Source: a virus. From it: DNA of 64,000 bases. The notes beneath the pieces were generated by a model. It saw nothing but the letters and a program-made list of their open reading frames with translations, made no database searches and was not told the DNA's origin. The stretch lies in IMG/VR virus record IMGVR_UViG_3300000062_000006, positions 182 through 64,181 of that record; one strand, given 5' to 3'. Shown here one piece after another: positions 15,541 through 33,440 of the stretch (position 1 is its first letter; every line of letters starts with the position of its first letter). Made by a program: the position numbers and the translations under genes.

Positions 15541-15858
15541 TTATGTGAAATAGTAAGTCTTCTTATTCCCTGTGCCAAACTTCCTTGCTTTGATAATCGT
15601 CTGAAATGGATAATCGTCTTTAGGAATTTGTCTCAGAGCTTCTTTTATTGGGCTTGCAGTAGTGAAGAACTTCTTCTCTTCGCCACCAATCTTTATTTTA
15701 AGAATATATCTATCATCCCCGTGTTCGGTCGTTATTCCTGCTTCATAATCCAATACTTCTATCTCAGAGTTGATAATCTCCTCAATAGATATCTGAGGAA
15801 CTTGAAAGATGTTTTTGTTTTCAAGTGTGTTTATACCGAAATCAGCAAATCGTTTCAT
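15541..15858 (-). CDS. Hypothetical protein overlapping the RT stop; candidate DGR accessory factor
   Basis: 105 aa, start overlaps RT 3' end, beta-strand-rich pattern unlike helical Avd. Confidence 0.55.
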   Translation of the reverse strand: MKRFADFGINTLENKNIFQVPQISIEEIINSEIEVLDYEAGITTEHGDDRYILKIKIGGEEKKFFTTASPIKEALRQIPKDDYPFQTIIKARKFGTGNKKTYYFT

Positions 15859-16828
15859 GTCGTACCACCTTTCTTATTAAGTTCTTTGAATTACAATGCT
15901 TAGCCCATCCAAGCCAAGAGCATACCTGTTGCTTGTAATCTTTATTGCTCATGCTCTTTTTATTCAATTTAGCTGCTTTCTTACAGAAGTTCTTTTTTAT
16001 TGACTTGCGCATTTTGATATGAGAATGATAGAATACGTAACCAACAAAGTCAATACCTCTTAAATCGACAGGGAATATTTGATAGTTTCCTTTTAGGTCA
16101 AGCCTTAGACAATCTTTTAAGTAATCTCTAACATCCGACAATAGGTTATGTAAATAGGCTTTGTCGCCTGCCAAGAATACCAAGTCGTCAGCATATCGAT
16201 AATAGTATTTCACTCGCTTGTATTCCTTCACCCAATGGTCGAAATAGGATAAATACAGATTTGCGAAGAACTGTGATAGGTAGTTGCCAATCGGAACACC
16301 CGGAGCAGAATCTATTATTTCGTCAAGTAACATTAGAAGCCTTTTGTCTTTTACCTTCTTGCGGATAATCGCTTTCAGTGCCTCATGGTCTATTGACGGG
16401 TAGAACTTCTTTATATCAAGCTTTAGGCAGTATTTTGTATTGTTGACATCTTTCAAATCACGCCTTAGATGCTTTAATACTCCATGAATACCACGACCCT
16501 TGATACATGAATAGGTGCAACTTGCAAAGACAGAAATCCAAATAGGTTCAAGAACGTTCATTATAGCATGATGGACTACCCTATCCCTAAATGGAAGACG
16601 GAAGATAAGCCGCTCTTTCGGGTCGTGGATTGTAAAGACGTCATACTCCGAAGTCTTATATGTTCCCTTGATTAGCTCTTCTTGAATCAGCATTAGATTT
16701 TTATTCAGATGCTTTTCAAAGTAGAGAACTCCATAAGAGCGACCTTTCCCTTGTCTTGCTTTCAGATATGCAGTATAGATATTATCTGCATCGCATATCT
16801 TATCGTATAAATTATTTATCCTTTTCAT
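15842..16828 (-). CDS. DGR reverse transcriptase
   Basis: FRDRVVHHA, GVPIGNYLSQ (DGR-type GNxxSQ), YYRYADD; 328 aa with no maturase/endonuclease extension; adjacent TR/VR set. Confidence 0.95.
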   Translation of the reverse strand: MKRINNLYDKICDADNIYTAYLKARQGKGRSYGVLYFEKHLNKNLMLIQEELIKGTYKTSEYDVFTIHDPKERLIFRLPFRDRVVHHAIMNVLEPIWISVFASCTYSCIKGRGIHGVLKHLRRDLKDVNNTKYCLKLDIKKFYPSIDHEALKAIIRKKVKDKRLLMLLDEIIDSAPGVPIGNYLSQFFANLYLSYFDHWVKEYKRVKYYYRYADDLVFLAGDKAYLHNLLSDVRDYLKDCLRLDLKGNYQIFPVDLRGIDFVGYVFYHSHIKMRKSIKKNFCKKAAKLNKKSMSNKDYKQQVCSWLGWAKHCNSKNLIRKVVRHETIC

Positions 16829-16935
16829 AAAGCCTTTATTTCTAATTAGAGCCTTCGATTCAATCTACCAGCACCTTTTGAAGTTTTATTTTTTGCCATG
16901 TTGGCAAGGTTCTTGCCTTTTCTTATTCTGTTATA

Positions 16936-17010
16936 TAGGTGAGACCTGCTACCCGCGTGCGCAAAATCGTTTTCGTAATTCGTATCGTTGAACGTGAAGG
17001 AAGAAGGAGA
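16936..17010 (-). repeat. DGR template repeat (TR), 75 bp
   Basis: Minus strand TCTCCTTCTTCCTTCACGTTCAACGATACGAATTACGAAAACGATTTTGCGCACGCGGGTAGCAGGTCTCACCTA; AAC/AAT-rich, intergenic upstream of RT. Confidence 0.95.
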
Positions 17011-17033
17011 TTAAGGCAAGCAACCCGTTTTTA

Positions 17034-17429
17034 TTATCCTAACTGAACGCCTTCCCAGATTTCACTAAAATTTTCTCCGAGAAATCTCGCTGTTTCGCGC
17101 ACCAAAACACGAAGGCGAGACCCGCTACCCGCGCGCGCAAAATCGTAATCGAAATTCGAATCGTAGAACGCGAAGGAAGAAGGAGACATATCGAACCAAG
17201 GTATATACTTTGGTTGGCTATAATCGCTCCAATCGATTTCACCCAAACCATTTTCTCTTTCTATTTTACGAGCAGCTTCTACGAGAATCTCAGCATCGTA
17301 CTGAGCCTCTTTGTATGCTCGTTTGTTTTCTGGGAATACTGAGAAATCAATACGACTTTCTCCCACTTCTTTGTAAGCTGCTTCCACTGTTGGGATGCGC
17401 TCCTCTAACTGTTTTCTTAAATCTTTCAT
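17034..17429 (-). CDS. DGR target protein 1
   Basis: Carries VR1 encoding SPSSFAFYDSNFDYDFARAGSGSRL. Confidence 0.9.
   Translation of the reverse strand: MKDLRKQLEERIPTVEAAYKEVGESRIDFSVFPENKRAYKEAQYDAEILVEAARKIERENGLGEIDWSDYSQPKYIPWFDMSPSSFAFYDSNFDYDFARAGSGSRLRVLVRETARFLGENFSEIWEGVQLG
17112..17186 (-). repeat. DGR variable repeat VR1
   Basis: 10 mismatches to TR over 75 bp, all at TR adenines. Confidence 0.95.
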
Positions 17430-17449
17430 TGCTTAATTGTTTTATATAT

Positions 17450-17932
17450 TTATCCTAATTGAATATCTCTCCAAATATCAAGGAACTGCTTGCCGATGTA
17501 TATTGCTAACTCCTCCGATTTGACGTGAAGGCGAGACCCGCTACCCGCGTGCGCAAAATCGTATTCGTAATACGAATCGTAGAACGAGAAGGAAGAAGGA
17601 GACATCTTGAACCAAGGTCGCCACTTCAATTGATTAGAATTATTCCAATCAGGCTCCCATCCTTCATTTAATGCCTTTGCAATCACAAACATTTTGTACT
17701 GAGCGACGAAATAAGGCTGCTGTTCCTTTGGCAAATTAGAGAAGTCGGGCACATCGGGACTACCTGTTTCTCTCATAGCATCCTCGAATGTTTTTATCCT
17801 ATCGCGAACATCTTGATTCTCGAACGTTTCTTTACCATAAAGGTTTTCAAGCATAGCCTGACCTTTGTTGTCTGACTCTCTCCATGCTCTAAGCGCATTT
17901 GCCTTTGAGACTTCTAAAAGTTCTTTTCCCAT
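17450..17932 (-). CDS. DGR target protein 2
   Basis: Carries VR2 (SPSSFSFYDSYYEYDFAHAGSGSRL); DRIKTFEDA motif. Start taken at MGKEL (track 17965). Confidence 0.9.
   Translation of the reverse strand: MGKELLEVSKANALRAWRESDNKGQAMLENLYGKETFENQDVRDRIKTFEDAMRETGSPDVPDFSNLPKEQQPYFVAQYKMFVIAKALNEGWEPDWNNSNQLKWRPWFKMSPSSFSFYDSYYEYDFAHAGSGSRLHVKSEELAIYIGKQFLDIWRDIQLG
17528..17602 (-). repeat. DGR variable repeat VR2
   Basis: 8 mismatches to TR, all at TR adenines. Confidence 0.95.
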
Positions 17933-17939
17933 TATTTTA

Positions 17940-18422
17940 TTAATTAGAAGGTTGAATAAGTTCACGCCATAAGTCTAAAAATTGTACTCCTGAATATTTT
18001 GCTAATTCTCGTGTTTTATAAGAAAGGCGAGACCCGCTACCCGCGCGCGCAAAAACGTAGGCGCAACCCGTACCGTAGAACGCGAAGGAAGAAGGAGAGC
18101 TGCCTGTGCTGAAATAAGGATAATAGCGATAGTCATTACTGTAAATATCCCCAACCCAACCTTCGTTTAACGCACGACCGATTGTGATTAGCTTTCTTCG
18201 GACTATTTCATCTTTGGTAAATCCAAGCCTAAGACATTCGGCTTCATTCAAAGGAATCTCTCCTAATTCAGCACAAGCATCTTCGTACGTTTTAACTCGG
18301 TCTGTTATGCTTTGAGAAAAGAAATCTTTGCCGAATGTATCTTCCAGCGTTGTCTTAAACTCAGGGGAAGCGTCTTTATACAACTTCCTCGCATTTGATT
18401 CTGTGATTTGTAATGTTTTCAT
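17940..18422 (-). CDS. DGR target protein 3
   Basis: Carries VR3 (SPSSFAFYGTGCAYVFARAGSGSRL); DRVKTYEDAC motif. Start taken at MKTLQ (track 18497). Confidence 0.9.
   Translation of the reverse strand: MKTLQITESNARKLYKDASPEFKTTLEDTFGKDFFSQSITDRVKTYEDACAELGEIPLNEAECLRLGFTKDEIVRRKLITIGRALNEGWVGDIYSNDYRYYPYFSTGSSPSSFAFYGTGCAYVFARAGSGSRLSYKTRELAKYSGVQFLDLWRELIQPSN
18024..18098 (-). repeat. DGR variable repeat VR3
   Basis: 14 mismatches to TR, all at TR adenines. Confidence 0.95.
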
Positions 18423-18537
18423 CTTTAATTGATTGTTTTGAATTGTTATAATAAAAGGCACAACGGCTGCACAAGGTTTCGGAGCAGGTATGTACAACTC
18501 GCTGCCCGGCTGTTTATGTGCATCAAAGACTACCGAT

Positions 18538-18732: not shown

Positions 18733-18991
18733 GATATATGATTTATTAAGTTGTTTTTTAGTTCGTCTCGTTCTCTTCGCATGGATATTCCGTAGTTTAT
18801 CCGCCAGTCCCGAGCCACAGCGGTCTTTTTCAGTTGTTCTCTTTGCTGTTTATTTTCCTCAATTAGTTGTGATTTTGGTGGATTTTCTTCGTGCATATAG
18901 TGATATTGTTTTATTTAAAAGAGATGCAGCGCACTATTCATCACGAACCGTTGCGCTGCGGAGTTAGTTAAATAATAAATGTGAAAAAATG

Positions 18992-19118
18992 TGAGCAAGG
19001 CAGGGTTCGAACCTGCAATCGCAGGGCACTTCTACCCCGATTCCTTTTTGTTTTTAACGTGGAGGTAGGACAATCTCCATTACAGTTTTTTTGCGTTTAC
19101 CAATTCCGCCACTTGCTC
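18992..19118 (-). ncRNA. tRNA-like element with expanded, non-canonical anticodon region
   Basis: Acceptor stem GAGCAAG/CTTGCTC+A, D-arm TGGCGGAATTGGTAAACGC, T-arm GCAGG-TTCGAAC-CCTGC, variable-arm hairpin GGGTA-GAAG-TGCCC; 127 nt long, no paired anticodon stem. Confidence 0.6.
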
Positions 19119-19150
19119 AGTTGCCTAAATTGGAGTCGCTAAAGAGTACA

Positions 19151-32789: not shown

Positions 32790-33440
32790 TTAATTGGATA
32801 ATAAACGATAAACCGCTCCTTTGTTCCATGATTTTCCTCCTGATGTTTTATAATTATTTTTATTTAATTCCTTTGCTGTTTCCTCGAAAGATTTGCCGTT
32901 CGCCCTTAACAACTCGGCGTATGATTTTGCCCTGATGTTGTTCGGGTCGTTCGCCGCCTTCGTTCGGTTCGCCTCTGCTCCTCGTTGCCTTGCCTCGTTC
33001 GTTAGGTTCTCTGGCTTTCCCAGTCGTTCGCCTCGATTCTTCAGGGCTTGAAGTGCCTTTTTCGTTCGGTCGCTTATTAACTCCCTTTCGTTCTGTGCCA
33101 TCGTCGCAAAGATTCCGATAGTCAAAGTATTTGCGTCCGGGACATCGCAGCATTCAAATACTACACCACTATCACGCAAGTTAAATATAAATGCGATATT
33201 TCTGCTCAATCGGTCAAGTTTTGCAATGAGTAATACCGCTTTCTCTGCCTTAGCTTGTTCGATTGCTTTTAACAGCTCCGGGCGTGCATTGTTTTTGCCG
33301 CTCTCGACCTCCACATATTCGGCTATTATTGCGCCTTTGTTCGCATAAGCTTCAACCGTCGCCCGTTGTGCCTCCAGCCCCAAGCCGCTACGGCCTTGTC
33401 GTTCGGTCGACACCCTTAAATATGTTATGTACTGTTTCAT
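32790..33440 (-). CDS. Serine recombinase (resolvase/invertase family)
   Basis: YLRVSTERQ, EVESGK, AKLDRLSRN, ERELISDRTK. Confidence 0.92.
   Translation of the reverse strand: MKQYITYLRVSTERQGRSGLGLEAQRATVEAYANKGAIIAEYVEVESGKNNARPELLKAIEQAKAEKAVLLIAKLDRLSRNIAFIFNLRDSGVVFECCDVPDANTLTIGIFATMAQNERELISDRTKKALQALKNRGERLGKPENLTNEARQRGAEANRTKAANDPNNIRAKSYAELLRANGKSFEETAKELNKNNYKTSGGKSWNKGAVYRLLSN

Follow-up and report, generated by a model that had tools for sequence, protein, structure and literature searches.

Guide RNAs have been joined to tRNA-shaped modules in man-made cassettes, namely the engineered polycistronic tRNA-gRNA arrays and the tRNA-like 't-elements' that flank crRNAs in Haloferax. 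MALAT1-mascRNA and the TMER transcripts of gammaherpesvirus 68 contain a tRNA-like module that is cut by the tRNA-processing enzymes, and the cut also ends the neighbouring functional RNA. RNase P reads the stack of acceptor and T arm together with the D/T elbow, and it ignores the anticodon arm. To our knowledge, the recently described Cas12f regulators that lack nuclease activity have no reported phage members. A family of dCas12f proteins acts with a sigma-E factor in RNA-guided transcription (Hoffmann et al. 2026, PMC13472631); its guide RNAs, 85–105 nt long, are encoded by the segment directly behind the gene and have a 14–16-nt guide at the 3' end, and a separate CRISPR-linked dCas12f clade is suspected to consist of repressors (PMC13472631). 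The text of that article does not mention tRNA, and 'phage' appears there solely in the title of one cited reference.

The locus described here lies in a 64,000-nt stretch of DNA (the window) from a 65-kb phage record of IMG/VR, and no close DNA relatives of the locus were found among GenBank phages. Positions 19249..20367 (minus strand) encode a 372-aa homologue of nuclease-dead Cas12f that is truncated after RuvC-II; residues 4–367 match PDB 9n9c ('Nuclease-deactivated Cas12f') with an E value of 2.4e-81, and the protein scores below the cut-off of the NCBIfam TnpB family. The gene upstream of dcas12f is a DUF4494 gene. Also upstream, a repeat search located a CRISPR array (20384..20683, minus strand) made of five 36-nt repeats, the last of them degenerate, and four 30-nt spacers. 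Close behind the stop codon of dcas12f, the repeat families D1 and D2 delimit a guide RNA scaffold with a degenerate copy of the CRISPR repeat (19151..19240, minus strand), and the position of this stand-alone guide RNA agrees with that of the published dCas12f guide RNAs, immediately downstream of the gene (PMC13472631). The 32 nt that follow the repeat-like handle and reach up to the start of a tRNA-like RNA (19119..19150, minus strand) are, as read from the sequence, the putative guide. The tRNA-like RNA occupies 18992..19118, and 33 nt past its 3' end a terminator-like GC-rich hairpin is followed by a U-rich tract (18926..18959, minus strand; MFE -20 kcal/mol, z -3.75 versus shuffles).

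The spacers of the array have no match in the window itself. The putative 32-nt guide has no target in the window and one 17-nt chance match in the phage collection; no full-length site with up to 3 mismatches was found in 4 Bacteroidales-type genomes, and a further 401 genomes searched with the first 20 nt, allowing 1 mismatch, gave no site either. As no target was found, the 32-nt segment is not proven as a working guide. Among the 28 window ORFs scanned, none displays a sigma-factor domain, sigma-E included. Each CRISPR repeat (20384–20683) and the stand-alone copy (19151–19186) contain the string TAATTTG, one base short of the Bacteroidetes -7 box TAnnTTTG. The gene and its array (19249–20683, minus strand) sit within an early leftward operon of a phage that looks temperate, with a CI-type HTH protein (24318–24923), a KilAC/Rha protein (22485–23210) and a serine recombinase (32790–33440). 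Further along, a likely diversity-generating retroelement (DGR) is found on the minus strand at 15842–18497, with a reverse transcriptase of 328 aa (15842–16828; RVT_1, E 3e-16) and four copies of a 124-nt repeat (16935–17058, 17111–17234, 17527–17650 and 18023–18146; 65–84% identity to the reference copy). Three paralogous ORFs of phrog_11581 (131, 171 and 185 aa) contain copies 2–4 and most of copy 1; since copy 1 also extends into the gap beside the reverse transcriptase, it may be the template repeat.

A preliminary description of this DNA had proposed a 127-nt tRNA-like element at 18992–19118, and its coordinates and strand proved exact: the Rfam tRNA model RF00005 covers the element end to end on the minus strand (model positions 1–71, 40.6 bits, gathering threshold 29), with an E value of 4e-5 for the whole window. 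Our own covariance model, R1, gives it 127.7 bits, which is a training-sequence score, as R1 was built on 18 sequences including the window copy. The arms named in the preliminary description are all present, and their helices are kept by compensatory changes in 17 homologues. In the alignment A2, which comprises the window copy and these 17 homologues, the 7-bp acceptor stem (5' strand 19112..19118, minus strand, partner 18993–18999, discriminator A at 18992) shows compensatory changes in 7/7 pairs across the 18 sequences. It is followed by a Leu-type D arm whose elbow nucleotides G18 and G19 are invariant in A2 (19093..19109, minus strand); the D-arm string of the window element is common to at least 115 phage elements. 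At the other end, the perfect 5-bp T arm with its TTCGAAC loop (19000..19016, minus strand) is recovered by the Infernal alignment, the consensus fold and covariation, and it is preceded by a hairpin at the variable-arm position with a GAAG loop (19017..19042, minus strand), in which the inner 4 pairs form in 100% of the cells, with compensatory changes at 3. In the window copy, a 5-bp outer helix lengthens this hairpin in the MFE fold.

Between the D arm and the variable-arm hairpin, the anticodon arm is replaced. Infernal places 70 nt as an insertion in the slot that holds the 17-nt anticodon arm of a tRNA. The replacement begins with an A-rich single strand ending in an invariant CUGUAAU-type heptamer (19080..19092, minus strand; invariant columns in A2). 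Next comes hairpin 1 (TGGAG/CTCCA), a 5-bp stem with a 10-nt variable loop (19060..19079, minus strand), in which 3/5 pairs are compensatory and 98.9% of the cells are paired; it sits between A-rich single strands on either side. The module closes with a conserved ACGUUAAA-type segment and an A-run linker (19043..19059, minus strand), again with invariant columns in A2. The middle had been described as an unpaired A-rich anticodon region with an extra hairpin. The A-rich single strands are indeed there, but the middle as a whole is a structured module conserved in sequence rather than a loosely unpaired one. Among catalogued tRNA mimics, neither Y RNA/YrlA nor the skipping-rope, DUF2693-FD and salivarius-1 RNAs gave an Rfam match to the element; RF00005 was the only one, even at E values up to 10.

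Relatives of this RNA form what we call the CUGUAAU subfamily. It turned up at 5 viral loci and at 26 loci of metagenomes, freshwater ones among them, and these gave 22 distinct full copies besides that of the window. The best-conserved part of A2 is the middle, which comprises an A-run, the heptamer, the 5-bp hairpin with a variable 9–10-nt loop, the ACGUUAAA-type segment, a second A-run and the GAAG-loop hairpin. The window copy has every invariant column. In the consensus fold of the 18 sequences, 97.2% of the cells hold standard pairs, a value that falls to 28–42% when the partners are slid by 1–3 columns; changes on both sides are seen in 16/26 pairs, and 0/500 shuffles reached the observed pairing by any measure. 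A 2-bp pseudoknot between the loop of hairpin 1 and the linker in 19043–19059 is a weak possibility, which comes down to two adjacent pairs only, one of which (52/77) shows CG, GC and UA. Five subfamily copies (L165:949–1106, L167:582–740, L172:1378–1535, L184:3774–3924 and L188:801–972) have an extra D-loop insert of 25–45 nt with the rest kept, so the frame tolerates a second cargo site. The subfamily RNA is a real gene under selection, and the cargo that it carries has a function of its own; we regard membership of the window RNA in a functional family as almost certain.

The neighbourhood of these genes was also compared. No recurrent neighbouring protein was seen across 22 subfamily loci, no Cas12f gene was detected by tblastn in the five viral loci carrying the subfamily, and no defence or counter-defence gene was found linked to subfamily loci. 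The reverse transcriptase/DGR next door to the window element recurs as a possible partner in one family locus only (L103).

The window subfamily is nested in a larger phage family with diverse cargo, which is apparently uncatalogued. A pattern search of viral contigs, for the Leu-type D arm and, after a gap of 60–90 nt, the T loop, gave matches in more than 115 of them, all with the tRNA frame, and the middles of the elements listed form at least 66 cargo clusters (among the 117 matches listed). Ordinary tRNA genes lie within 1.5 kb of 28/116 listed elements, always on the same strand. In phages that have both, the family frame is unlike the ordinary tRNA-Leu genes and is not a recent copy of them. 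A separate cargo cluster (L106, L131, L133, L134 and L153) also displays a heptamer of CUGUAAU type, with a hairpin and then a GUUAA-type segment behind it; the whole piece may be a module reused across cargo types. None of the other family members showed repeats arranged in a CRISPR-like way on its upstream side, and a scan for the Leu frame behind a repeat end yielded two matches, both attributable to chance. Rfam holds no model specific to the tRNA-Leu-frame family. We found no description of the RNA family or of a natural guide/tRNA-like junction in the literature, the coverage of which was incomplete and gives no proof of novelty. Phages hold a large and diverse set of RNAs in which the leucine-tRNA frame serves as a chassis for unrelated structured inserts, and annotation pipelines overlook such RNAs or would label them pseudo-tRNAs.

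We then considered the junction itself. The tRNA-like RNA begins 32 nt past the end of the repeat, on the same strand, and the spacers of the array are 30 nt long. From the gene to the element, a consensus scan of the minus strand for terminator-like sites returned nothing save a weak sigma-70-like match overlapping the gene end, and a consensus scan found no Bacteroidetes -7 box (TAnnTTTG). With neither terminator nor promoter between guide and element and a hairpin after the element, a single transcript ending past the tRNA-like RNA is the simplest reading.

In order to see how often such a junction occurs, we compared about 64 other loci encoding relatives of the protein, drawn from 38 viral contigs (39 loci, one contig giving two), 13 bacterial genomes and 12 assemblies, using Rfam, ARAGORN, R1 and a scan for a T arm with an acceptor stem. 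A tRNA-like RNA follows the guide at 1/64 of these Cas12f-like loci, L189, or 2/65 when the window is counted; at all the remaining compared loci no tRNA or tRNA-like RNA was seen to follow the guides. The dCas12f of L189 is 64% identical to the window protein, and DUF4494 lies upstream as it does in the window. After a scaffold and two repeat-spacer units, an aberrant 76-nt tRNA-like RNA (L189:3800–3875) starts 31 nt past the last repeat. Its acceptor, D and T arms are good and its anticodon stem is decayed (3/5 pairs); it is unrelated to the Leu frame, is called Ile-UAU by ARAGORN, has no Rfam match and gave no relatives in a search of viral contigs. A degenerate terminal repeat closes off the last spacer of L190, and arrays end in this way wherever the end is visible. 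About 1 kb upstream of another dCas12f gene of a phage, a cluster of Lys, Glu and Met tRNAs includes a 94-nt tRNA-like RNA (L009:1881–1974; R1 40 bits, 'tRNA-???' by ARAGORN).

With 12 same-strand tRNA genes in the 344,663 nt of the 64 loci, about 0.016 starts would be expected by chance at one spacer length, give or take 3 nt. Two junctions were observed (window and L189), and the probability of two or more is about 1e-4, a rough, post hoc figure that assumes independent loci; a common gene order makes it doubtful that the window and L189 are independent events. The junction is probably not random. The linkage to cas12f-like loci, for which the preliminary description had proposed a check, is seen at L189, with 31-nt spacing and a different tRNA-like RNA, and at none of the rest of the about 64 other loci.

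Altogether, 18992–19118 is a functional, non-decoding phage RNA with the outer frame of a leucine-type (class II) tRNA. The reading to which we incline is that it is a functional cargo RNA on a tRNA frame, and that a cut by RNase P at the junction with the guide also ends the guide. We infer an early transcript that would run, in order, through the CRISPR array, dcas12f, the stand-alone guide RNA, the tRNA-like RNA and the terminator hairpin. The element displays what RNase P looks for, with acceptor and T arm stacked, an intact D/T elbow, and the favoured nucleotides U (-1) and G (+1), and cleavage at 19118/19119 is likely. Since the tRNA frame supplies the handles of the host tRNA enzymes, RNase P should make the 5' end of the RNA and an RNase Z-like nuclease its 3' end. 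If the guide RNA and the element are co-transcribed, cleavage at 19118/19119 follows almost automatically, and since the tRNA-like gene stands at the end of the early transcript, this one cut would both free the tRNA-like RNA and define the 3' end of the guide. The start of the element exactly one spacer-length past the guide RNA indicates that RNase P probably cuts the guide 3' end as well, and that the enzyme thereby sets the boundary of the guide is, in our judgement, rather probable. The cut would leave the guide with a 3'-OH, 32 nt past the repeat handle, and exonucleases might then trim it to the length protected by the protein. RNase P cleavage would here take the place of the degenerate terminal repeat that bounds the last spacer in related arrays. 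The replacement of the anticodon arm would be a cargo with its own job, probably the binding of a host or phage factor.

Whether the position of the element has been selected for setting the guide end is a narrower matter, for which we would stop a little short of calling it probable. Since characterised dCas12f guides are 14–16 nt long, cutting at 32 nt may make no functional difference. The viral subfamily loci without dCas12f and the lack of a recurrent neighbour protein point to a main role of the RNA elsewhere, and the adjacency could be gene packing. Two direct connections between guide, cargo and genome were considered and rejected: the guide-cargo duplex (-14.9 kcal/mol) does not differ from shuffled sequences (mean -13.9, p = 0.34), and the 10-nt loop has four one-mismatch sites in the phage genome against 4.5 expected. 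It is quite improbable, in our estimate, that guide and tRNA-frame RNA act as one unit, in which an uncleaved chimera or a co-released cargo would serve as an effector-recruiting or regulatory arm for the sigma-less phage dCas12f, a natural 'scaffold RNA', with the tRNA-Leu frame as a general phage chassis for interchangeable RNA cargos.

The main competitor of a guide-ending cut holds that the two genes are neighbours only: an independent small-RNA gene with its own promoter, beside which the dCas12f cassette landed, the 31–32-nt spacing being due to chance or shared ancestry and without any role in guide maturation. Many phages with the subfamily or the broad family do indeed lack dCas12f, CRISPR repeats and any neighbour protein that recurs, the junction is absent from all other dCas12f loci compared except L189 (about 64 loci), and the DUF4494-dcas12f-tRNA-like synteny of the window and L189 could go back to one ancestral arrangement. 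Against this stand the expectation of only about 0.016 same-strand tRNA starts within 3 nt of the spacer length and the different types of the two tRNA-like RNAs, which argues against the simple inheritance of one gene; moreover, between guide and element neither a promoter motif nor a terminator is present, and given co-transcription the RNase P cut fixes the guide end, selected or not. We consider a mere neighbourhood unlikely, though it deserves to be taken seriously. At the other extreme, the element would be a dedicated processing signal, solely recruiting RNase P to trim the guide, with a middle that is degenerate filler. The geometry of the junction speaks for it, as does the tRNA-like RNA of L189, with its decayed anticodon stem and no relatives found. 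Filler, however, is not expected to contain invariant heptamers and covarying hairpins; the middle is the most sequence-conserved part of the element, and the subfamily lies apart from Cas12f genes where this was checked. The suggestion of a processing signal for the guide 3' end made in the preliminary description therefore survives in part: the element abuts the guide, has the RNase P determinants, is separated from it by neither terminator nor -7 box, and has a counterpart in L189, but the same RNA occurs in more than 20 other contigs of phages or metagenomes, five of them viral and with no Cas12f gene detected by tblastn, so that it was not purpose-built, and a signal dedicated to the guide is very improbable.

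Two further explanations concern the RNA rather than the junction. In the first, the RNA would act as a decoy or sponge: by mimicking a tRNA, it would absorb some host factor that binds tRNAs, or lead it astray, and anticodon nucleases, modification enzymes and synthetases are examples of such factors. This explanation bears on what the cargo does and can hold together with a cut at the junction. The elbow and acceptor are intact and decoding is impossible, many family members lie within phage tRNA clusters, and by eye the heptamer resembles the anticodon loop of tRNA-Tyr and the second conserved segment that of Leu(UAA). The heptamer, however, is not in a closed 7-nt loop, no linked defence or counter-defence gene was found, and the last alignment column, the discriminator, is A, G, T or C among the 18 copies (A in the window copy), a variation within the subfamily that makes conserved leucylation unlikely. 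A decoy or sponge function of the cargo is possible, but as an explanation we rate it improbable. The remaining candidate is a decoding tRNA, be it a tRNA-Leu interrupted by a short intron or a suppressor that reads with its enlarged loop, or else a dead remnant, a pseudogene. The Leu-type frame is suggestive, as are the conserved segments containing UAA and GUA, which look like anticodon loops, but neither segment is closed by a stem, the 10-nt loop has no conserved triplet, and the consensus fold shows no closing stem where a tRNA would have an anticodon stem of 5 bp and a loop of 7 nt (U33, anticodon and purine 37). ARAGORN, which the preliminary description had put forward as a check, reports no tRNA and no tmRNA over the whole window, and with introns of 0–120 nt allowed it still returns nothing for the window copy. 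Across the family (117 related elements), the anticodons and intron sites that the program proposes are mutually inconsistent. Compensatory changes in all helices reject the plain pseudogene that had also been entertained, and this last group of explanations is scarcely credible; that the RNA does not decode is very probable. A tmRNA-like mini-ORF was considered separately and discarded, as the AUG...UAA frame of the window copy is broken in homologues by a compensated change of the AUG and by 8–9-nt loops.

A functional cargo RNA whose RNase P cut also ends the guide can finally be set against the systems already described. Like the dCas12f systems of Hoffmann et al., the locus combines a homologous nuclease-dead protein of the same family with a single guide RNA right downstream and a 3'-terminal guide; unlike them, for which a neighbouring sigma-E gene with a C-terminal extension is characteristic, the window has no sigma-E gene among the 28 ORFs scanned, and its CRISPR array upstream of dcas12f resembles the CRISPR-linked clade (PMC13472631). 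The RNA itself shares with class II bacterial tRNA-Leu the 7-bp acceptor, the Leu-type D arm and loop, the T arm and a hairpin at the position of the variable arm, and differs from it by about 56 nt of conserved non-tRNA sequence instead of the anticodon stem-loop. Among phage RNAs, species 1 and 2 of T4 (rnaC and rnaD) are annotated as stable RNAs of unknown function that end a tRNA cluster. The 139-nt rnaC resembles the window element in that a T arm and a closing helix enclose a large non-tRNA middle; it lacks the Leu-type D arm and an Rfam tRNA match, and its middle is unrelated, so that the two are alike in kind and not in family. MALAT1-mascRNA and the TMERs belong to eukaryotes or an animal virus and have no link to an RNA-guided protein. 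The closest parallel is with the engineered tRNA-gRNA cassettes, in which a tRNA-shaped module also lies against a guide and a cut by endogenous RNase P or RNase Z at the junction, predicted here, sets the guide end; the arrangement in the window differs in being natural and in a phage, with a module that lies 3' of the guide, has no anticodon and carries its own cargo. If RNase P does end the guide here, the locus would be a natural counterpart of the tRNA-gRNA trick of genome engineers, and it would show how stand-alone guides lacking a terminal repeat gain a defined 3' end, which is relevant to the nuclease-dead Cas12f regulators.
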